A stretch of 64,000 nt of DNA from Minisyncoccota bacterium (lineage in GTDB: Bacteria; Patescibacteriota; Minisyncoccia; Phycocordibacterales; UBA918). The notes under the pieces are model-generated. The model saw nothing but the letters and a program-made list of their open reading frames with translations. It was not told where the DNA came from and searched no databases. Below, in pieces: positions 5,230-32,572 of the stretch. Position 1 is the first letter of the stretch. Every line of letters starts with the position of its first letter. A program made the position numbers and the translations under genes. The DNA lies in contig JAWKSP010000002.1 of NCBI GenBank assembly GCA_041389025.1, positions 105,279-169,278 of the forward strand, written 5' to 3'.

Positions 5230-5900
5230 TAAATTTGCCATAATTTTTGACAACCGATGATTTCAAGTGACAAACCACCGGGACTAAGGTCCGGTGGCTT
5301 CTTAATAGCTGGCGATGCCAGCATCACTTAAAGAGGTTAAATAGAGATGGTTGTTCTAGTTGATTCTTATCGTACTGATGACGTACATAACGTCGTATTA
5401 AGTGTTCGTCTAGTCCGATACTGGAGACAAAGTATCCTCTAGCCCAGAGTGAACCTCTATCATAGAGCTTATCGATGTTTTTAACTTTCTTTTTCATCCA
5501 AGCTGATGATTTACCTTTAATTATCTGCGTTACGTACGATATGGAATATCTAGGTTATGTGAGTAGTATAAGATGAATATGATCGTCTTGTATATTTAAC
5601 TCTATAATCTCCCACTGTTTCCATTTGCATATTTGATTAATAACTCTTGTTACTTCTTGTTTTATCTTTGGTTTATCCAGTACCTTACCTCGGTACTTTG
5701 GTGTCCAGACGATATGATATTTTAGATCGTAGAAACAGTGTGATAATGTTCTAATGGTATGTTTGTGGTATGACATACGTATTATGATATTAAGCGAATA
5801 AGTCCTTCCTTTCGGAATGGACTTATTCGTTATACGACGTTGTCTTTAAACGTACACCCCAGTGAGACTGGGGGTTTTTAGGGTTAATGAACTACCCTAA
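5230..5900 (-). mobile_element. IS200/IS605-family insertion sequence carrying tnpA only, with subterminal hairpins at both ends. Probably decayed.
   Basis: Y1-transposase ORF with HxH (HIHLIL) and the YHIVWTPKYR motif. Right-end hairpins at about 5245-5320 (CCACCGGGAC..GTCCGGTGG; GCTGGC-GAT-GCCAGC). Left-end hairpins at 5797-5835 (CGAATAAGTCC..GGACTTATTCG), 5857-5874 (CCCCAGT-GAG-ACTGGGG) and 5883-5904 (TAGGGT..ACCCTA). Confidence 0.6.
5324..5776 (-). pseudogene. tnpA: IS200-type transposase tnpA (Y1 HUH transposase) interrupted by an in-frame TAA at 5555-5557.
   Basis: N-terminal part (5776..5558) reads MSYHKHTIRTLSHCFYDLKYHIVWTPKYRGKVL...DDHIHLILLT, then TAA. The same frame continues PRYSISYVTQIIKGKSSAWMKKKVKNIDKLYDRGSLWARGYFVSSIGLDEHLIRRYVRHQYDKNQ, which is the conserved C-terminal half of IS200 TnpA. 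The stop sits exactly where a hydrophobic residue is expected. Confidence 0.65.
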
Positions 5901-5928
5901 TGCAGAGCATGCGGGGTAAAGATGGAAT

Positions 5929-7737
5929 CTAATCCAATAAAAAACCTCCGGATTGATGTTGCCACAATTTAGCATATACTCCGTTTGCATCTTTAAGTTC
6001 GGTGTGTTTCCCGTCTTCAATTATTTTCCCTTCTTCCAAAACAATTATTCGGTCCATTTCCCTTAAAGTAGAAAGTCTGTGAGCAATGGCAATTACTGTT
6101 TTCCCTTCCATCAGATTATGAAGAGCTTTTTGTATAAGAATTTCACTTTCACTATCGAGAGCTGAGGTGGCCTCATCTAATATAAGTATTGGAGCGTTTT
6201 TAAGCATTGCTCTAGCTATGGCTACTCGTTGTTTTTGACCACCGGACAATTTCACTCCACGCTCTCCTACCAAAGTATCATAACCCTCCGATAATTTACT
6301 GATAAATTCGTGAGCATGGGCTTGTTTCGCCACTTCGATAATCTCTTCGTCAGTAGCATTTGTATTACCGTAAGCAATATTTTCTCTTATCGTCCTATGA
6401 AACAAAGCCGGTTCTTGTGGTACCACGGCTATATTTTGCCTTAAAGAATCCTGTGTTACTTTTGAAATATCTTGTCCATCGATTTTTATTAAACCAGAAT
6501 CAACGTCATGTTGGCGTAAAAGCAATGACACAAAAGTAGACTTACCAGCTCCGGACGAACCAACCAACCCAACTCTTTGACCACCCTCTATACTTAAGTT
6601 AAAACCTGTAAAAACTTCATTATTCTCAAACTGAAACGACACGTCGTTCCAATCAATTCTTCCATTATTTACCACCATATCTGTTGCATCTTTGACATCC
6701 ACAATTTCGTGATTTACTAGTAAATCATCAAGGGCCTCCTGTAACTCACCAATTGTTTTAGCCATAGCATTAAAAGCTCTACCTATAAATATAAGTGATC
6801 CAGAAATATTAAATATTAAAGCCGCTACCATCACAAAATCACCAGTACTTATTTCTCCTAACGACCACTTGTTAGTAACTAACCAGAAAATACTAAAGGA
6901 AAAAGTAAATAATATAAAAGTATTGATAATTAATAACTTTTCTGTATAAAACCAATTATTTTTATGTGCTATCCTTCGTTTATCAGTTAATTCTTTTAAA
7001 TCATTTATCTCTTGTTCGTACTTAGTATATTGTCTAACTGCACTTATATTTGTTAATCTATCAATTATTCCTCCACCTAGTAAAGTATTAGCCTCTGAAC
7101 TTATTTTTGAAAGCCTAGTTTTCTCAGGAGCAAGTTTTTTATTTGTAAGATAAAGCACAAATATCAAAATTATGAATAAAAAAGATGATGTGCCATCTAC
7201 TGAAAATATAAGTGAAAAAGTAACTAAAAAGCCAACAAATGAAGCTAGTTGGGCCCACAAAAAATCAGGAATAATTTCATCTACAGCTCCTATAATGTTT
7301 CTCAGTTTACTTGAAATTGAACCAGCAAATCTATTCGAGTAATATGAATGACTATGTTTAAAAATATACGAATTAACGGTGTCTACAGCCGTTTTTGCAG
7401 TTTTTGTTGTCCAATTTGCAGCTACAAAACCACTTAAACGATAAGTTGCTTGTATAACAAATAATGTAAGTGGTAATACTACACCCCAAAACATTGCTGA
7501 TTTTGTATCACCTTTTTCTGCAGCATCAACTATAAGTTTAAAAATATAGCTTGTACCAGAACCAACTGAAGAAGCAATTATTACCAAAAAAATAGCCGAA
7601 AAAGCCCAAATCTTATGAGGTTTTGATGAATACACAAAAAACCGCCACGGAGTTTTGGGAATAGTATTTTCTTTTTCGTTTATTGTTTTATTCATAAAGT
7701 AAATTAACGCCTTAATCAGCGCTATTTTAATATACAC
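5929..7737 (-). CDS. ABC exporter, fused permease plus ATPase (MsbA/multidrug type).
   Basis: N-terminal 6-TM domain. Walker A GSSGAGKST, ABC signature LSGGQKQRVAIARA, Walker B ILILDEATSALD. Confidence 0.9.
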   Translation of the reverse strand: MYIKIALIKALIYFMNKTINEKENTIPKTPWRFFVYSSKPHKIWAFSAIFLVIIASSVGSGTSYIFKLIVDAAEKGDTKSAMFWGVVLPLTLFVIQATYRLSGFVAANWTTKTAKTAVDTVNSYIFKHSHSYYSNRFAGSISSKLRNIIGAVDEIIPDFLWAQLASFVGFLVTFSLIFSVDGTSSFLFIILIFVLYLTNKKLAPEKTRLSKISSEANTLLGGGIIDRLTNISAVRQYTKYEQEINDLKELTDKRRIAHKNNWFYTEKLLIINTFILFTFSFSIFWLVTNKWSLGEISTGDFVMVAALIFNISGSLIFIGRAFNAMAKTIGELQEALDDLLVNHEIVDVKDATDMVVNNGRIDWNDVSFQFENNEVFTGFNLSIEGGQRVGLVGSSGAGKSTFVSLLLRQHDVDSGLIKIDGQDISKVTQDSLRQNIAVVPQEPALFHRTIRENIAYGNTNATDEEIIEVAKQAHAHEFISKLSEGYDTLVGERGVKLSGGQKQRVAIARAMLKNAPILILDEATSALDSESEILIQKALHNLMEGKTVIAIAHRLSTLREMDRIIVLEEGKIIEDGKHTELKDANGVYAKLWQHQSGGFLLD

Positions 7738-24814: not shown

Positions 24815-26518
24815 CTATATTTCAATCTCATCTATAACCACTGTTTCCTCAATCTTTTTTTCTGGTTCTTCTATCACTTCTTCTACAACTTCATTATTCT
24901 CCTCAACTAATTCTTCTACCACCTCCTCAACAATAATTTCTTCCACAACATCAACCTTAGTTTCGCTAGATTTATCATTTACATCGGCTTGTTCATTAAT
25001 ATTATTTTCTTTTTCTTCTTGGTTATTTTGATTAGTATTTTGCTCTATTTCATTTTCATCTATTTGTCCTAACATCTCTTCTTTATCTTCGGTTGGTATG
25101 GTTGGCTTTTCGATAAATTCCTCTATTGTCTGTTCTTCTCCATTTTTTTCTTCACTATCGTTACTAGAAATAAAGGTTTGACTATCAATTACCAGTGGTA
25201 GAGTCATGGCTGGCTCAGCAATATTTCTAGTAAATTCAAAAGTTACAATTTCAGTGTCAATATAACCGCTGCCAGCCGTCTCACCATCAAGATAAGCGGT
25301 AAATATTAAATCTACTATACAAGGTGTTACTCCATAATAAAAATCAGATAAAGAAAAATCTAGTAAGAAGTCATTACCAATAATGGTCTCAGTTTTATTT
25401 AAATTAAGCAGATTTCCATTGTAAGAAAGCGGCGCTTCTGCTTTAACAGTAATCAAACCACACAAAGCAGAAGCGCCGCTTTCTTTTACTTCAATTTTAT
25501 AAACCAAACTCTCTTTTACTCGATTATCTAAATCAATACTAACCTCTGTAGTAGTGGTACCCAAAATATTATCATCTTCAGTCAAGAAATTTGTCTTAGA
25601 AGCAAAAATTGAAAAATCAACAGCTGTTGCCTGCATGCTGTTTGCAAAACTAATTTCTGTATCAGTTGGATAAGCAAAGGTAGTCATGTCTCCCAACATT
25701 TGCATAGAAACAAAAACCAGCAATACAAACCCCGCCACTACTGTTGAAGCCTGCGGTCTAATATCATGTGAAAAATTATAGCTATTTTTTTGTTCAACTA
25801 TCTTACCAGTAGAAGGTTCTATCATTTTTCTAGTTTTACCAGTTGGTTCTATATCCATTTTTTTTGTTTTAACGACTCTAGTTGGTAAATCAACTTTTAA
25901 GTTAACTTTTCTTAATGAATTTGCTGTTTGTATTTTTTTTACTTTTTGCTTTGAGCTATTTGGATCATAAGGAGTAATCACCAGCGGCACGACCATATCT
26001 TTATCAAATCTAAGTCCACGCATTCTTCTCACTTCCAACCAAATTTTTATTAGTTCATCTAGAACAATCAAAAAAGCCGGAATACCAACCAAAAGCCCAA
26101 AACCCAATGGTTGTCTGGCAAAATCAAGCATAAAACCAACGTACGGTATATCAAAGACTACTTTTCCAATAACATCACCGGCCGGTACCGGTTTTGCGTC
26201 TCTATCTTCGTTGGCGTCACCTTTGGTTATAAAATAACTCTTTCCATTTATATTTTCAGTATCAATTATCCTATGTGTAGTCGGAATCTTAGCGTTTTTA
26301 TCTGCAAAAGTGATAATATCACCAACTTTATAACTTTCAATTTCATGAATAGCCACCACTGCTCCAGTCATAATAGTTGGCTCCATCGAACCAGATTTCA
26401 CTATTTTAACTTCAATATTTCCAACCCCTGGAATTGGTGGCGCCATTAGCAAGAAAACCAAACCCAAAACGATTAGGATAAAAATTGTATAGGTGATATT
26501 ACTAATAATTTTTTTCAT
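24815..26518 (-). CDS. sipW: Archaeal/ER-type signal peptidase I (SipW-like, S26B) fused in frame to a TasA-like module that has its own internal SipW-cognate-type signal sequence and an acidic C-terminal tail.
   Basis: N-terminal 190 aa: TM, then VKIVKSGSMEPTIMTGAVV...IPTTHRII...FITKGDANEDRDAKPV..GKVVFDIPYVGF, then a second TM. These are the SipW / S26B catalytic Ser and His boxes. It is followed by a basic linker and VVAGFVLLVFVSMQMLGDMTTFAYPTDTEISFANSMQATAVDFSI, which resembles the GAFFSDTETS..N.FTAG..DL motif of the downstream paralogues. No stop codon separates the two parts. Confidence 0.8.
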   Translation of the reverse strand: MKKIISNITYTIFILIVLGLVFLLMAPPIPGVGNIEVKIVKSGSMEPTIMTGAVVAIHEIESYKVGDIITFADKNAKIPTTHRIIDTENINGKSYFITKGDANEDRDAKPVPAGDVIGKVVFDIPYVGFMLDFARQPLGFGLLVGIPAFLIVLDELIKIWLEVRRMRGLRFDKDMVVPLVITPYDPNSSKQKVKKIQTANSLRKVNLKVDLPTRVVKTKKMDIEPTGKTRKMIEPSTGKIVEQKNSYNFSHDIRPQASTVVAGFVLLVFVSMQMLGDMTTFAYPTDTEISFANSMQATAVDFSIFASKTNFLTEDDNILGTTTTEVSIDLDNRVKESLVYKIEVKESGASALCGLITVKAEAPLSYNGNLLNLNKTETIIGNDFLLDFSLSDFYYGVTPCIVDLIFTAYLDGETAGSGYIDTEIVTFEFTRNIAEPAMTLPLVIDSQTFISSNDSEEKNGEEQTIEEFIEKPTIPTEDKEEMLGQIDENEIEQNTNQNNQEEKENNINEQADVNDKSSETKVDVVEEIIVEEVVEELVEENNEVVEEVIEEPEKKIEETVVIDEIEI

Positions 26519-26523
26519 GTTTT

Positions 26524-27726
26524 TTATGTATTTTTATTCCAATCAAAACGGAAAAATAAACTATTAAATCTATCTCTTATTGACTTAGTAAAGAAATTTT
26601 CTTCAACTACCACTGGATAAAAATTTTCACTTTGCCCAGAAGGAAGACCATCATCGTCAGTATTATCGTTTTCGTCGTTAGAATTCCCTGGGTTTGAGTC
26701 ATCATTATGATCATCATCATTACCATGACCGTTATTACCTTTTGGTATACATGGTTTGCCATTTTGATCTACATATTCTTGTCCTAAAGCTTCGTATTTA
26801 ATCTGCCCAGAAGGAAGACCCTCATCGTCAGTATTATCGTTTTCGTCGTTAGAATTTCCTGGGTTTGAGTCATCATTATGATCATCATCATTACCATGAC
26901 CGTTATTACCTTTTGATTTTAATTTACAATAATTTTGTGGCGGTACTTTTTTATCACAAGAAAAACCTTCATTATATTTAGCTTGTACTGCTCGCAAGGA
27001 AACATCAACTGTCATTGAATCAGTTTGGCTTTCGTTACCCATCATTTTTCCGTCACAATTAACTTCTGCCGTATCAGTATTTACCATCAAATCTCCAGCA
27101 CACCATAATATACCCACATAATTAACCGAACCAGCCTTACAATAATTACCAGAATTAGAATAAGTGTTAGCTACAGCGTAAGTAGTACTAGCCAATAATA
27201 CATTAGCAGTTTTTGTACTGGTACCAAAAATTATCCTTTCACCAACCTCAAATTTATTGTCTCCATCGTCTTGCCAAGCAAAAAATTGTAGGTTTTGTGA
27301 TAATTCTCCACCAACTTCAGTATCCACCAATCCTTCCGGCTCGTTTGTACCATTTTCATGATCTTCTAAGTTGCTAAAATCAAGGCAAACATAAGCATCA
27401 TTCTTTTTTACATGCAAACTAATCAAATGTTCTCCTAAGTCACCTGGTTTAACATCATTAAAATTGAAAAATTTATCTGCTTTTGGTACTAGATTTTTAG
27501 CTTCCCAAGTAAGTGACGGTTGCAAAACACCATTATAAATTGCTTTACTTTCTACTGTTAGTTCTAATCCGGTTTTTTTATCTTTAGAATTATTATCTTG
27601 ATAATTACCGGTAGCAAAAGTGTAGCCGGCGTTAGCTCCGCTAACGCCGGCTACCACCAACAATAAAACTACTACTCCAACCAAAAGTGAAACTTTAACT
27701 CCTTTCTGGTAGATAAAACTTGTCAT
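26524..27726 (-). CDS. Secreted TasA-like paralogue. It shares the FNFNDVKPGD..ISLHV..NDAYVC...ENGTNEPE core with the other paralogues. It contains a duplicated 57-aa His/Asp/Asn-rich module.
   Basis: Core homology to the three upstream paralogues, including LGNESQTDSMTVDVSLRAVQAKYN. The N-terminus ...VAGVSGANAGYTFATGN is atypical. Confidence 0.7.
   Translation of the reverse strand: MTSFIYQKGVKVSLLVGVVVLLLVVAGVSGANAGYTFATGNYQDNNSKDKKTGLELTVESKAIYNGVLQPSLTWEAKNLVPKADKFFNFNDVKPGDLGEHLISLHVKKNDAYVCLDFSNLEDHENGTNEPEGLVDTEVGGELSQNLQFFAWQDDGDNKFEVGERIIFGTSTKTANVLLASTTYAVANTYSNSGNYCKAGSVNYVGILWCAGDLMVNTDTAEVNCDGKMMGNESQTDSMTVDVSLRAVQAKYNEGFSCDKKVPPQNYCKLKSKGNNGHGNDDDHNDDSNPGNSNDENDNTDDEGLPSGQIKYEALGQEYVDQNGKPCIPKGNNGHGNDDDHNDDSNPGNSNDENDNTDDDGLPSGQSENFYPVVVEENFFTKSIRDRFNSLFFRFDWNKNT
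26635..26919. repeat. 171-bp tandem direct repeat, about 1.7 copies and over 95% identical, inside gene 26524..27726.
   Basis: The unit starting CCCAGAAGGAAGACC at 26635 recurs at 26806. It encodes KGNNGHGNDDDHNDDSNPGNSNDENDNTDD(E/D)GLPSGQ twice. Confidence 0.85.
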
Positions 27727-27788: not shown

Positions 27789-29168
27789 TTAATTTGGTAT
27801 AACCGCACAGTTAAGTGCACTAATAGCATCTAGGTCATAACCATCGGCGGTTGCTTCAAATGGTGCTCGTGGTGATACGTCAGTTATTCTTACATATTTG
27901 GCCCAAGACAAACCAGAGCTTGCTAAATCAGCTTCTGAGTCACGATCTACACTAGCGGTTACTAAATACCAATCAAGCCCATCCTGACTTACCTCAATTT
28001 TAATTTTTTCTACCGGATAACTACTACCACCAGTTACTTCCCAAGCTCGCAAATCATTACCTGGCCCATCCACTATATAACCATCATCAAACTCAACTGT
28101 AATCCACCCTCCTTCAGTCTCGTTTTCATCTGGGTTAAAACCAAGACTAAAGAAGCTATTTGGTACAACTGGATTATCAAATGGTGTACCAAGACTTTGT
28201 GGAGCACCGATTACGTAAGATTCCACTGAACGACCAGCGTCTACTGGAGCACCATTTTTCTTTACTCCCTGTGACACTGCTATTACCTTGGTGGCGTATG
28301 ATTGTTCTGGTGTACAAGCCACTTGATTTGGTCTACATACAAAATCAGAATTATGTCGCGCTTGTACCGCACTAAATGACACATCTGCAGTTAAAGAGTC
28401 GGTTTGACTTTCGTTACCAAGCTTCGCTCCACTACATAGAAATCCTCCATCAGCTGGTTCACCCGCTTCTCCGTTATTATCGTTATCGTCAGCTGGACTC
28501 CATTCGTCCACCTCACCATCCTGATCTAAAGCTTGTGGTTCCATATCACCAAAACACCATGCTTTACCAATATAATAGGTCTCAGTTCCATTTATAGGAC
28601 CACCAAGAGCATTTTCATTCCAAATGTTAGTGTTTGAGTCGGCTAGCGCGATTGAATATGCTTGACCAATCGGTAGAGACCCAATTGGGGCTGGACCGGA
28701 AATTATCTCTTCATCATCCTCATAGACATTATCACCATCGTCAGCCCACCAAATGAAGTTTACCAAACCAGCCAACTCACCTTCGTCATCATCGATTGTT
28801 TGGTCAACCAAAGCCTCCGGCTCTGTTTGACCATTTTCATTATTTGAAGTTAGGGTTACATCAGCACAAACAAAAGAATCATTATTTTCTACGTGGATAG
28901 AAATAGTATCTTCACCATAATCCCCTGGCTTCACATCATCAAAATCAAAGAATTTTTCAATGGTTAAATCTTTCTTTTCCCATGATGTATTGTCGTTAAA
29001 AAGACCATTGTAATAGCTTTCGTTGTCTATCAGCAAGTCAATTGCTCCGGCGGTAAAGATGTTGTCGGTGGAGTTTTCTGTATCATTAAAAAAAGCTTTA
29101 GTCACCCCAAAAGCCGTAACACTGGCGGTTACCAAAATCATTGCCAAACTTAGAAAAATACGTCGCAT
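27789..29168 (-). CDS. Secreted TasA-like protein with a SipW-cognate signal peptide and a C-terminal beta-sandwich (galactose-binding/discoidin-like) domain.
   Basis: N-terminus MRRIFLSLAMILVTASVTAFGVTKAFFNDTENSTDNIFTAGAIDL. Core FDFDDVKPGDYGEDTISIHVENND. The C-terminal domain ...GGWITVEFDDGYIVDGPGNDLRAWEV...WAKYVRITD...ADGYDLDAISAL is called from its pattern only. Confidence 0.7.
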   Translation of the reverse strand: MRRIFLSLAMILVTASVTAFGVTKAFFNDTENSTDNIFTAGAIDLLIDNESYYNGLFNDNTSWEKKDLTIEKFFDFDDVKPGDYGEDTISIHVENNDSFVCADVTLTSNNENGQTEPEALVDQTIDDDEGELAGLVNFIWWADDGDNVYEDDEEIISGPAPIGSLPIGQAYSIALADSNTNIWNENALGGPINGTETYYIGKAWCFGDMEPQALDQDGEVDEWSPADDNDNNGEAGEPADGGFLCSGAKLGNESQTDSLTADVSFSAVQARHNSDFVCRPNQVACTPEQSYATKVIAVSQGVKKNGAPVDAGRSVESYVIGAPQSLGTPFDNPVVPNSFFSLGFNPDENETEGGWITVEFDDGYIVDGPGNDLRAWEVTGGSSYPVEKIKIEVSQDGLDWYLVTASVDRDSEADLASSGLSWAKYVRITDVSPRAPFEATADGYDLDAISALNCAVIPN

Positions 29169-29278
29169 AATCAGATTTCTTAATTATTAAATTAAATATT
29201 TTTTAATTTATAAAGCCCCCCAGCTAATAATCTTAATAAATTTATAAACTCAACGCGCTGATTCCCCTTTTCAGCCCA

Positions 29279-29307
29279 CTGAACATCTTAAACTTTAAGA
29301 TGTTCAG
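29279..29307. promoter_or_regulatory. 29-bp near-perfect palindrome, CTGAACATCTTAAA-C-TTTAAGATGTTCAG, in the intergenic leader between two tasA-like genes. Candidate operator or attenuator hairpin.
   Basis: Two 14-bp perfect inverted arms. It is embedded in a leader element conserved with the region 30860-30920. Confidence 0.45.
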
Positions 29308-29330
29308 AACGGCTAAATATAATCAGTTTT

Positions 29331-30812
29331 TTAGTTAATTGGGCAATCTGCCAAACCAGCTAAAATATTTTCAAGATCAGAAAACTCAGCGGCTGTAAAG
29401 TAATGAGCTGGTGAAGTAGCAATACCTTCTAGGAAAGTATTATTTACTCCATCACCAATACCAACTACGTATATAGTAGTACCGGCAGCTTTAGCGGCGT
29501 TAGCAGCTATTACAGCTGTTCCTTCGTCATCTGGTACACCATCAGTCATGATAAGCATAAAATCCGGTGCTTCTAAGACATCATCCCGGTCGCGTACACC
29601 AGAAAGCTCGGTTGATGCTAGACTAATACCAGCAGCTAGATTGGTAGTACCCCCTGAAGACAAGGCGTCAATAGCGGTATTGATATCAGCTAACACGTCA
29701 GTCAATTGTGAGTTTAAGGTAGCACCAAAATCAAAGTCCACCACACCAATGTGGTTGCCAGGGGTAGCTGGGGCTAATGCAGAAGCAAAAGCTTTCGCTG
29801 CAGTAGACATAACCCCTAACTCAGCAGGACTAATGCTACCTGATGAGTCAAGTACAAACACTACGTCATTTTCTTCGTTACAAGCCAATCCTCCATCTCG
29901 CTCATCACAAACAAAGTTTGGATTATTTCGAGCTTGTTCAACTCGAAAAGCAATATCAGCTGTCATACTGTCTGTTTGAGCTTCGTTCTTCATAGTTGAG
30001 CCATCACAAGTAACAGTTCCTTCAATTGAGGCGTCGATAGTACCAGCACACCAAGCTAACCCAATATACTGTGTAGTAGCCCCAGGGAAAGGAGTACCAG
30101 TAGTTGAATCTGCCAAAGTATAAGTTCGTCCACCAAGTACATCACTAGCTGGCCCAGAAACATTTGAGAATAGTTTTGGTTCTCCAGTCTCCCAAATATT
30201 GTCTCCATCATCAGCCCACGCAAAGAAAGTCATATTTTGAGCCAACTCTCCATCAAAATCATCGTTATTGTCCTCCGCCACGTCACCACTTTCAAGTTCC
30301 GGCTCAGTTGAAGAGACATCATCATTTTTAGTAATATCTACATCAACACACATCCATGCATCGTTATTTTCAACGTGTAATGAAATAGTGTTTTCACCGT
30401 TATCACCTGGTTTAACATCTTCAAAATCAAAGAAAGTATGAACTCCATCTTCAAGATCAGTCAAAGACCAAGTTCCAGCACAAGCATCACCAGCTTGTGG
30501 GACGTTAGCTGGGTTGGCAGTGTTGTAAGCAGTGTTGGCTGTGTCAATATCTTCACCATCTTTTAGTGCCAAATGAGCTGGTGTATCACCTTCTTCTGGC
30601 ACCCATTCAATAATATCTTCATCAGTCCAAGCACCATCAAAACAAACCAAACCATTGATATGCGCTACGCTGTCAACTTTTAGATCTAAAGCACCGGCGG
30701 TAAAGACGTTACCGGTAGAAGTCTCGGTGTCAGAGAAGAAAGCTCCAGTACCAGAAGCGACCAAAGCGACCGCAAATACGATCATTCCTAGACTTGTAAC
30801 AATTTTTTTCAT
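29331..30812 (-). CDS. Secreted TasA-like protein with a SipW-cognate signal peptide and a C-terminal von Willebrand factor A (vWA) domain carrying a MIDAS motif.
   Basis: N-terminus MKKIVTSLGMIVFAVALVASGTGAFFSDTETSTGNVFTAGALDL. The vWA part is VVFVLDSSGSISPAEL... (D-x-S-x-S MIDAS) ...MIMTDGVPDD...IYVVGIG. Confidence 0.8.
   Translation of the reverse strand: MKKIVTSLGMIVFAVALVASGTGAFFSDTETSTGNVFTAGALDLKVDSVAHINGLVCFDGAWTDEDIIEWVPEEGDTPAHLALKDGEDIDTANTAYNTANPANVPQAGDACAGTWSLTDLEDGVHTFFDFEDVKPGDNGENTISLHVENNDAWMCVDVDITKNDDVSSTEPELESGDVAEDNNDDFDGELAQNMTFFAWADDGDNIWETGEPKLFSNVSGPASDVLGGRTYTLADSTTGTPFPGATTQYIGLAWCAGTIDASIEGTVTCDGSTMKNEAQTDSMTADIAFRVEQARNNPNFVCDERDGGLACNEENDVVFVLDSSGSISPAELGVMSTAAKAFASALAPATPGNHIGVVDFDFGATLNSQLTDVLADINTAIDALSSGGTTNLAAGISLASTELSGVRDRDDVLEAPDFMLIMTDGVPDDEGTAVIAANAAKAAGTTIYVVGIGDGVNNTFLEGIATSPAHYFTAAEFSDLENILAGLADCPIN
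30690..30812. repeat. Copy B of a roughly 125-bp duplicated gene 5' end, 2 mismatches from copy A at 32450..32572.
   Basis: Base-by-base comparison shows only 2 substitutions. It encodes the identical signal peptide MKKIVTSLGMIVFAVALVASGTGAFFSDTETS. Confidence 0.9.
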
Positions 30813-30922
30813 AGCTATTTATTATTTGTAAAGTAATTAATTTTTTACTAAATATCATGCTGTCCCCTCCAGCCCGCCAAATTCCAGCCACCAGACTGAA
30901 ATTCGGAACGGCTGAGTAGGAT

Positions 30923-32572
30923 TTAGTTGTGCGGAAAAGCACTCACTTCTTCAGGTATAAAGTCAACCTCGTCTGTGCCACCAGTTTGAGCAGCTCCACC
31001 ATTTGGACCCCAGAAGTTGTTAATAGCGTTAACATTTCCTGCTAAGGCGCCATAGGTATTTAACATTGTTCCATCCAAGAAATTATTGAACTGCACAGTG
31101 GCTGGATTCGCATCGTGTGTCGAATCTGCCCCAACAGCTTCTGAACCAGGTACTGTATGTTCAAATTCATTGTATTGAACAGTTACTCCATTAAGTCCAC
31201 CAATACCGGCAGTGTTACCGTCGATGTCGTTATACTCGATTACAATAGTTCCAGTGTGTGGATTGGTGTAAATACCAGTTGTTAAATCGTGAATATGATT
31301 TCTAACAATATCTACATTTGAATAGGTAGCAGCGGTTACTGTCTCAACTCCACGTGAACTAGCCTCACTTAAACCATCAATGTCGTTGTAAGAGACTTCA
31401 ACGTTACTTAAATCACCATTAAGGTAAACAGCAGCGTTGGTTCCCAAGAAAGAACCTGGATTAATCACAAAACCAGTAAGTGTCACATCATCTGCCTCAA
31501 TAATCACACCGTTCTGGATGGTAGCTGTATTAGTCGGGCCATTCACAGAAGCTAGGGTTAACGGTTTATCAATAGTCACTGTTTCATCATAGCTACCGTC
31601 CCCAACACAAACAACGTCACTTGGTGTAGCACTATTAACCGCATCTTGAATTGACTGACTATCATCAGCTACCGTAACGTCACAACTTGGTGCCACATAG
31701 TCAGACAAGGATGCTCCTACCAGTTGACGTGGCTCTTGCCCTCCATCAAGTGGTGGTAAAGAAGCACATCTAAACGCATCGTTGTGACGAGCTTGCACCG
31801 CATGGAAAGCTACATCAACTTCGATACCATCGGTTTGAGCATCATTATGGTCGCCTTGCGCGCCAGTACAAGCAAATCCGGTATTATCAACAGTCGGTGC
31901 CCCATAATCATCTTGAGGCACTGCATCAGGTGAAATATCACCAAAACACCATCCTTTTCCAATGTAAGCGGTTTCTCCACCAGAGAACGGTTCGTCACCT
32001 GACTCAGCCAAAGCTAGCCAGTTACCTGTAAAGATTTCACTTGAAAGACCACTTAAAGCGTCGATGATTTTTTCATCATCTTCCAAGACATTGTCTCCGT
32101 CATCGTGCCAGAAAAGGAAAGAAAGATAATTTTGCAGCTCTCCTTCGTCAGCGCCGGCTGTGTTATCAACGTCCACTTCTGGCTCAGTCTGATCATTTTC
32201 CGGCGTTCCGGTCAAGTCAAACGCCATACAGGCATAAGCGTCATTGTCGTTCACATGCAAGGAGATAGTATCTTCACCATAATCCCCCGGTTTTAAATCA
32301 CGGAAGTTAAAGAAGAGCTGATCCGTCAAATCAGACAACTCCCACGAATTACTGTCGTTTGGTCCCCATACACCAGTCGCCTGATCTAGCGGGATAGCTG
32401 GGTTATTCCAATCAAACCCATAGCTGGAATTATCAATCAAAAGATCAATAGCTCCGGCGGTAAAGACGTTACCGGCAGAAGTCTCGGTGTCAGAGAAGAA
32501 AGCTCCAGTACCAGAAGCGACCAAAGCGACCGCAAATACGATCATTCCTAGACTTGTAACAATTTTTTTCAT
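30923..32572 (-). CDS. Secreted TasA-like protein with a SipW-cognate signal peptide and C-terminal right-handed parallel beta-helix repeats (pectate-lyase/NosD-like).
   Basis: Same N-terminus as the downstream paralogue. Core NFRDLKPGDYGEDTISLHVNDNDAYACM. The C-terminal part has repeated V/I-x-N-x-I segments: VTLTGFVINP, VEVSYNDIDG, DIVRNHIHD, IVIEYNDIDGN, VTVQYNEFEH. Confidence 0.75.
   Translation of the reverse strand: MKKIVTSLGMIVFAVALVASGTGAFFSDTETSAGNVFTAGAIDLLIDNSSYGFDWNNPAIPLDQATGVWGPNDSNSWELSDLTDQLFFNFRDLKPGDYGEDTISLHVNDNDAYACMAFDLTGTPENDQTEPEVDVDNTAGADEGELQNYLSFLFWHDDGDNVLEDDEKIIDALSGLSSEIFTGNWLALAESGDEPFSGGETAYIGKGWCFGDISPDAVPQDDYGAPTVDNTGFACTGAQGDHNDAQTDGIEVDVAFHAVQARHNDAFRCASLPPLDGGQEPRQLVGASLSDYVAPSCDVTVADDSQSIQDAVNSATPSDVVCVGDGSYDETVTIDKPLTLASVNGPTNTATIQNGVIIEADDVTLTGFVINPGSFLGTNAAVYLNGDLSNVEVSYNDIDGLSEASSRGVETVTAATYSNVDIVRNHIHDLTTGIYTNPHTGTIVIEYNDIDGNTAGIGGLNGVTVQYNEFEHTVPGSEAVGADSTHDANPATVQFNNFLDGTMLNTYGALAGNVNAINNFWGPNGGAAQTGGTDEVDFIPEEVSAFPHN
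32450..32572. repeat. Copy A of the duplicated gene 5' end. See 30690..30812.
   Basis: Near-identical to 30690..30812. Confidence 0.9.

Follow-up and report, generated by a model that had tools for sequence, protein, structure and literature searches.

Analysis of a 64,000-nucleotide (nt) stretch from a Minisyncoccota bacterium (GenBank assembly GCA_041389025.1, contig JAWKSP010000002.1, positions 105,279 to 169,278; the whole stretch is referred to as the window) was centred on a repeat within a gene for a TasA-like protein of 400 amino acids (aa). Towards its C-terminus this protein was found to contain two near-identical copies of a 37-residue module that recurs in otherwise unrelated, mostly exported proteins of several phyla. 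The simplest history of the pair is an old duplication followed by recent homogenisation of the copies, and the module itself may fold around divalent cations. Taken as a whole, this explanation (an old conserved stalk module, a homogenised duplicate and cation binding) is considered fairly probable, and its structural and evolutionary parts taken by themselves are held with good confidence.

Layout of the repeat and conservation of the module

The gene and its product were divided as follows, the basis of each assignment being given in brackets (pLDDT, predicted local distance difference test score).

26524..27726, minus strand: gene under study, TasA-like protein of 400 aa (open reading frame list, paralogy, fold match)
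27640..27726, minus strand: N-terminal hydrophobic helix, export signal or anchor, aa 1-29 (AlphaFold helix aa 3-29)
26947..27564, minus strand: TasA-like jelly-roll / beta-sandwich domain, aa 55-260 (pLDDT mostly 80-97, Foldseek match 8aur_A)
26803..26913, minus strand: module copy 1, aa 272-308, KGNNGHGNDDDHNDDSNPGNSNDENDNTDDEGLPSGQ (translation)
26743..26802, minus strand: unique spacer, aa 309-328, IKYEALGQEYVDQNGKPCIP (translation, alignment, pLDDT 64-74)
26632..26742, minus strand: module copy 2, aa 329-365, KGNNGHGNDDDHNDDSNPGNSNDENDNTDDDGLPSGQ (translation)
26527..26631, minus strand: C-terminal tail, aa 366-400, with a predicted amphipathic basic helix (AlphaFold, alignment)
26626..26744, no strand: DNA direct repeat, distal arm, putative homogenised tract (repeat search, alignment)
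26797..26915, no strand: DNA direct repeat, proximal arm, putative homogenised tract (repeat search, alignment)

A repeat search returned the direct repeats at 26626-26744 and 26797-26915 as 119 nt of 96% identity with a start-to-start distance of 171 nt, in agreement with an earlier note on this DNA in which two near-identical copies were described at that spacing. Both modules encode KGNNGHGNDDDHNDDSNPGNSNDENDNTDD(E/D)GLPSGQ, as that note had also given, with 3 of 111 nt and 1 of 37 residues (E versus D) differing between them. The accompanying description as a 171-bp tandem duplication was not confirmed. Of each 171 nt, 111-119 are repeated and the copies do not lie head to tail; the 60-nt spacer (26743-26802) is present once and showed no likeness to either flank upon pairwise DNA alignment, in which identity falls off exactly at both module borders, and Tandem Repeats Finder reported no array with a period of 171. 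In the protein the spacer is predicted to form a small hairpin that ends in Cys326.

Conservation of the module was evaluated in the 120 best homologues of the protein, which originate from Nomurabacteria, Kaiserbacteria, Paceibacteria, Minisyncoccia and others. The module was present in 57 of these, in one copy in 53 and in two copies in 4. Its start nearly always lies 68-79 residues before the C-terminus, and a short basic tail comes after it. All 59 distinct module copies are 37 residues long without a single insertion or deletion. Fifteen columns are invariant (G2, G5, H6, G7, N8, D11, N13, D14, S16, N17, G19, N22, D26, D29 and P34) and 7 further columns are conserved in at least 90% of copies, which gives the consensus KGNNGHGND-x-D-x-NDDSNPG-x-SND-x-DD-x-TDDDG-x-PPGQ, the conserved core of which is free of hydrophobic residues. 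The description of the module as His-rich was overstated: His6 is the sole invariant His, and His12 is found in half of the homologues.

Among the module-bearing homologues the module averaged 75% pairwise identity, more than the TasA-like domain (60%), the signal region (27%) and the tail (17%). Since few amino-acid changes are seen in the module across species while roughly half of the synonymous codons have changed, the module is under strong purifying selection. Judged by its sequence, the module is a discrete and old protein unit and not low-complexity filler. Homologues without it usually show an Asp/His-rich stretch at the same place, for example DDNHHNDDDD. In one metagenome homologue of 246 aa (P0047) translation of the module continues in another frame after ...CEPKG (IMGTEMTKIITMIQIQ...) and the protein ends early, on account of either a frameshift mutation or a sequencing error.

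Age of the duplication and probable homogenisation of the copies

Two modules at the same insertion point and with the same spacer length were also found in the orthologues P0002 (69% identical) and P0003 (62%). Relative to proteins with one module, all three share a 51-residue insertion, made up of module 1 and 14 residues, that sits inside a Cys-bounded loop (EC / insertion / KDxxGKxC), and their spacers are homologous. In P0002 and P0003 the first modules have Tyr27 and Tyr33 in common, the second ones Asp27 and Val or Ile33. The two copies within a gene were compared in these proteins and in a more distant two-module relative, P0011.

P0002, copy 1 versus copy 2: 22/111 nt differ; 17/34 synonymous codons differ
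P0003, copy 1 versus copy 2: 25/111 nt differ; 13/31 synonymous codons differ
P0011, copy 1 versus copy 2: 23/111 nt differ; 19/35 synonymous codons differ

Within each of these three genes the copies have diverged as much as copies from different species. In the window, by comparison, 34 of the 36 codons that specify the same amino acid are identical, against 17.4 expected (P=9e-10), the expectation being calculated as a Poisson-binomial under independent codon choice with the window's own codon usage. As the orthologues share the insertion point while their own copies have diverged at synonymous sites, the duplication appears to be old, and as 34 of 36 codons are identical in the window while about half differ in the orthologues, the homogenisation appears to be recent. 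The simplest history read from these sequences is intragenic gene conversion in the lineage of the gene under study. In the clade ancestor, a second copy together with about 14 linker residues would have been inserted in the Cys-bounded loop just upstream of the original copy; the later conversion, probably of copy 1 onto copy 2, would then have generated the near-identical direct repeats of 111-119 nt. That copy 1 overwrote copy 2 is suggested by both window copies being nearer to copy 1 of P0002 (81-83% identity) than to its copy 2 (75%). Two points weigh against this history as told. The direction depends on a difference of a few percent identity over 111 nt, and loss of one copy followed by re-duplication at the same site cannot formally be separated from gene conversion.

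The earlier note had proposed a very recent expansion of the repeat with possible copy-number variation between strains, and had added that tandem repeats in surface proteins often give rise to phase or antigenic variation. The 97% identity of the two copies at the DNA level is in favour of such a recent tandem duplication, and direct repeats 171 nt apart would in principle be able to recombine, which could permit reversion to a single module by an in-frame deletion of 171 nt (none was observed). We nevertheless consider this alternative improbable, as the copies are separated by a unique 60-nt spacer instead of lying head to tail and as orthologues of 62-69% identity have the same layout and insertion point with 13-19 of 31-35 synonymous codons differing between their copies. 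The expected behaviour of a contingency or phase-variable locus was also not seen, in that all 57 module-bearing homologues contain one or two copies, the 171-nt unit is in frame and selection on the module is purifying and not diversifying. The protein is the single member of its cluster at 90% identity, and a search of JGI metagenome contigs for strain variants or an allele with one copy, by means of two exact DNA probes, gave 0 matches. A spurious duplication or collapse during short-read assembly was also weighed. The source is a metagenome-assembled genome (MAG), and repeats of near read length are prone to error. Such an artefact is however very improbable because the copies are not identical, differing at 3 positions, and because the same module-spacer-module layout is found in independent assemblies (P0002, P0003 in two samples, and P0011); in addition, the flanks are unique and in frame.

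Occurrence beyond the family and proposed function

In order to describe the module beyond its family, one genome per GTDB species was scanned with the two most conserved peptide patterns. This resulted in 47 confirmed species loci with 50 instances of an 18-residue core, GNNGHGND-x-[DG]-x-x-D-x-SNPG, in which D13, S15, N16, P17 and G18 were kept in 48-50 of the 50 instances though unconstrained by the main search pattern. The long form, ending ...TD-x-DG-x-PG, accounted for 23 of the 50. Outside Patescibacteria, carriers were observed in Alphaproteobacteria (Hyphomicrobiaceae, Mesorhizobium, Hoeflea, Roseicyclus, Silicimonas and others), Bdellovibrionales, Campylobacterota, Gammaproteobacteria, Magnetococcales and one Methanobacteriota archaeon. 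The carrier proteins are otherwise unrelated, the majority with an N-terminal signal, a lipoprotein signal or a membrane anchor. They include a Tad/VWA protein, a subtilase, a DUF4114/RTX protein, collagen-like repeat proteins, Bdellovibrionales lipoproteins of 700-800 aa, an archaeal EF-hand/LDL-A protein and FecR-domain proteins, in which the short form is often located at the extreme C-terminus after Pro-rich linkers. Domains that bind Ca2+ (EF-hand, LDL-A, RTX) accordingly occur in some carriers. Between bacteria of the candidate phyla radiation (CPR) and Proteobacteria, roughly 70% module identity is retained in otherwise unrelated proteins of exported or surface type.

When 1.84 billion representative proteins were searched exhaustively with a profile (E<=1e-3), the matches fell into 61 clusters at 50% identity, and a single protein contained as many as 7 copies. 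The figure of 61 is probably an undercount, composition-bias filtering by HMMER being suspected. A word-indexed profile search with the module alignment returned one protein and recovered none of the 57 known module-bearing proteins. No entry of Pfam-A (2025), NCBIfam 20.0 (checked with the protein under study and ten other carriers) or the PDB sequences covers the module, PDB searches with the module profile and with a profile of the whole family gave zero matches, and nothing relevant emerged from literature searches, full-text for the motif, that covered the motif strings and SipW in CPR. On sequence grounds the module is a strongly constrained, cross-phylum unit without a family model that belongs to no named family.

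At one locus of Roseicyclus sediminis (L026) four long-form modules are present, two of them in a protein of 218 aa (5551-6204) and the other two roughly 0.8 kb further downstream (6839 and 6956; ~6416-7612). The module has therefore, by its sequence, been duplicated independently in Alphaproteobacteria. This was the single carrier neighbourhood looked at, and no conserved partner gene was found in it; the neighbours in this Rhodobacteraceae genome are housekeeping genes, namely an acyltransferase and a short-chain reductase (fabD/fabG-like), ribosomal protein L9 and a glucose/sorbosone dehydrogenase. A pilin-like reading of the N-termini in several carriers from Alphaproteobacteria was not retained, as it has no backing from Pfam, with a Tad match (PF13400) in carrier L009 only. 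An association with filaments is therefore not claimed as a finding.

The nearest known kind appears to be that of acidic, probably cation-dependent mini-repeats. Thrombospondin type 3 (TSP3) repeats (PF02412, bacterial PF18884), which are not known to fold without Ca2+, are likewise short Asp/Asn-rich units without a hydrophobic core, and the second half of the module, (D/N)-T-D-D-D-G-x-P, resembles DxDxDG Ca2+ sites. The module however differs from TSP3 in that it is unmatched by the hidden Markov models (HMMs) at E<=10, has no disulfide-forming Cys within the unit, and has a first half (GNNGHGND...SNPG, with the invariant His) without a TSP3 counterpart. Its N-G-H-G-N-D string resembles one GGxGxD Ca2+ turn of the RTX nonapeptide (PF00353, GGxGxDxUx), and two proteins contain both the short form and RTX repeats, but a single turn without the hydrophobic U residue is unable to form a beta-roll and no HMM match was obtained. 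The string D-x-[ED]-S-N-P-G is also similar to viral 2A ribosome-skipping peptides (D-x-E-x-NPG/P). This was rejected as a chance resemblance, the residue after the module Gly never being Pro; 2A peptides are not known to work on bacterial ribosomes. An ester or isopeptide cross-link motif was rejected as well, since the candidate residues Lys1 and Gln37 are not invariant.

Metal-ion folding is the precedent for acidic units of fixed length that have no hydrophobic core (TSP3 repeats, RTX turns, EF/DxDxDG loops). Because the module is such a unit, with invariant Asp, Asn, Ser, Thr, Gly and Pro residues, a divalent-cation knot is favoured, and binding of the Ca2+ type is put forward as a tentative proposal. 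Candidate ligands are spaced D9-x-D11-x-N13-D14 and (D/N)27-T-D29-D-D31-G32, the latter in the DxDxDG pattern, and are accompanied by the RTX-like turn, Asn-Gly and Asn-Pro-Gly turns and a single invariant His. The module would fold around divalent cations, with Ca2+ as the best guess, and His6 may provide an extra ligand or a site for a transition metal. It is positioned in what would be the C-terminal stalk (Cys loop, one or two modules, basic tail) of a secreted TasA-like protein that may be a fibre or matrix subunit, between the jelly-roll and the basic tail. There the cation knot would make the stalk stiffer or link it to other fibres, to the cell surface or to a substrate, and two modules would double the cation-bridging capacity. 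The divalent-cation reading of the earlier note agrees with this proposal and fits the composition of the module, the fixed spacing of Asp, Asn, Ser and Thr, and the Ca2+ domains of some carriers. Both modules have a pLDDT below 50 in the AlphaFold model; this lack of a confident apo-structure and the Asp/His-rich stretches of module-less relatives give indirect support. Weighing against metal binding, a pLDDT below 50 is equally compatible with plain disorder, and TSP3 (PF02412/PF18884), RTX (PF00353), EF-hand, dockerin and Excalibur models had no module match at E<=10 when the C-terminal 151 aa and the 37-mer of P0002 copy 2 were queried with hmmscan, which gave two irrelevant weak matches only.

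If the low model scores do reflect disorder, the module could be an acidic linker without a specific ligand in which conservation is one of composition only, and the strong bias to Asn, Asp and Gly fits such a linker. Linkers of this kind vary in length and sequence, however, whereas here there are zero indels and 15 invariant columns, conservation exceeds that of the folded domain, and identity persists between phyla in unrelated proteins; the linker is accordingly regarded as unlikely. There is slightly more, though still little, to be said for a recognition tag by which a partner or enzyme would act in docking, proteolytic maturation, glycosylation or sorting, in place of a metal site. The C-terminal placement of the short form in FecR-domain proteins and the occurrence of the module in the SipW-fusion protein of a relative (P0148) point in this direction, and the long form of Proteobacteria and Bdellovibrionales has the string D-G-N-D-S, a fit to the N-glycosylation sequon of bacteria, D/E-x-N-x-S/T. 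The sequon is however missing from the Patescibacteria form (D-H-N-D-D), some proteins carry the module internally and in as many as 7 copies, no partner gene was conserved in the one neighbourhood examined, and Patescibacteria, diderm Proteobacteria and the archaeon differ in envelopes and sorting systems.

A wider and rather unlikely form of this proposal is that the module is an undescribed, cation-dependent mini-domain without a hydrophobic core, spread by descent or horizontal gene transfer across CPR, Proteobacteria, Bdellovibrionota, Campylobacterota and archaea. Secreted proteins would then have it as a universal stalk knot or docking unit for Ca2+-dependent bundling or attachment. A link to surface filaments is possible, with TasA-like proteins in CPR and one Tad/VWA protein in a Hyphomicrobiaceae genome cited for it. 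Duplication and gene conversion are routine molecular evolution. What deserves to be recorded is that the duplicated unit, short and fixed in length, is better conserved than the folded domain carrying it, and a family model would annotate a recurrent feature of secreted proteins. Patescibacteria cannot be cultivated by themselves, and most of their surface biology is deduced from sequence; a cation site, if real, would offer a handle on the stiffening or attachment of their TasA-like surface structures, and Ca2+-dependent bundling or attachment could have a bearing on host contact in episymbiotic Patescibacteria.

The host protein and its locus

The protein is 100% identical to hypothetical protein R3B60_03775 (P0001) of a Candidatus Paceibacterota MAG from the CPR, whereas a look-up by exact sequence gave no entry. 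It is a TasA-like paralogue by fold and paralogy, as had been noted earlier: it shares 35% identity over the N-terminal 250 residues with the neighbouring upstream paralogue (E=1e-44), and its AlphaFold2 model (input alignment of 116 sequences, mean pLDDT 73.8) has the TasA fibre 8AUR as the sole PDB match at E<=0.001 in Foldseek (8aur_A, E=6.9e-5, probability 1.0). The C-terminal helix at aa 381-396 is modelled with a pLDDT of ~55, and the tail to which it belongs is found in all relatives, poorly kept in sequence. The neighbouring genes are the following.

24815..26518, minus strand: SipW/archaeal-type signal peptidase I (aa 4-157) with a C-terminal extension of ~400 aa (TIGR02228)
27789..32572, minus strand: three upstream TasA-like paralogues of 459, 493 and 549 aa (Pfam, NCBIfam)

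The peptidase fusion gene starts 5 nt downstream of the gene under study. Its product scored 118.3 bits against TIGR02228 (cut-off 51.85) and 115.1 bits against the Bacillus SipW equivalog NF046067, below the cut-off of 190. By tblastn synteny, the peptidase was found directly downstream of the orthologue in all 9 of the other Patescibacteria loci whose sequence extends downstream, and the ~400-aa extension was also matched in 8 of these. Features of the extension are a further hydrophobic segment, a motif resembling that of a TasA signal (FAYPTDTE) and a long tail rich in Glu. In the patescibacterial relative P0148 it is the SipW-fusion protein itself that bears a GNNGHGND module.

TasA homologues in Patescibacteria have already been reported by Wang et al. 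2022 (PMC9245690). The jelly-roll fold, with 8AUR as best PDB match, is a likeness to Bacillus subtilis TasA/camelysin (PF12389) of the tapA-sipW-tasA operon and to the archaeal bundling pilin AbpA (PMC9245690), and the locus resembles that operon in its cluster of paralogues beside a SipW-type signal peptidase. By analogy with 8AUR and AbpA, the protein may assemble into TasA-like fibres, and the adjacent peptidase would process it. The basis for both steps is synteny and fold, and it counts against them that the protein is unmatched by the TIGR04088 model of the SipW-dependent signal peptide, its family having G-x-TFAT where the SipW signal has AFFSDTE. The protein also matched no Pfam family at E<=0.01, PF12389 (Peptidase_M73, TasA/camelysin) included. 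The C-terminal stalk has no counterpart in the TasA chain of 8AUR, and unlike in the B. subtilis system the peptidase is fused to its long extension.

Two of the three upstream paralogues scored above the PF12389 cut-off at their N-termini (33.2 and 25.4 bits; cut-off 22.5), and two of the three above that of TIGR04088 (24.6 and 24.0 bits; cut-off 19). Their C-terminal regions contain a weak sub-threshold F5/8-type-C match (459 aa), a VWA domain (493 aa) and a sub-threshold beta-helix match (549 aa). The guanine plus cytosine (GC) content of the three is 41-46%, compared with 32-36% for the gene under study and the peptidase gene and 36% for the whole window, a contrast that could reflect a different origin or expression-linked codon usage.

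Within the gene under study a GC-rich palindrome was observed at 27622-27654 (minus strand), with perfect arms of 15+15 nt and a 3-nt loop (GTAGCCGGCGTTAGC gga GCTAACGCCGGCTAC). Situated where the signal region ends, it encodes VAGVSGANAGY in a gene of 33-36% GC, and was the strongest stem of the region in a terminator scan. The 5' ends of the 493-aa and 549-aa paralogues (~30688-30812 and ~32448-32572, minus strand) have 2 mismatches over the first ~125 nt from the ATG and encode identical 32-aa signal peptides, and identity drops sharply on both sides of this tract. It looks like a second gene-conversion tract in the cluster, and since it is near-identical and sharply bordered in two paralogues, gene conversion appears to be active among these TasA-like genes.

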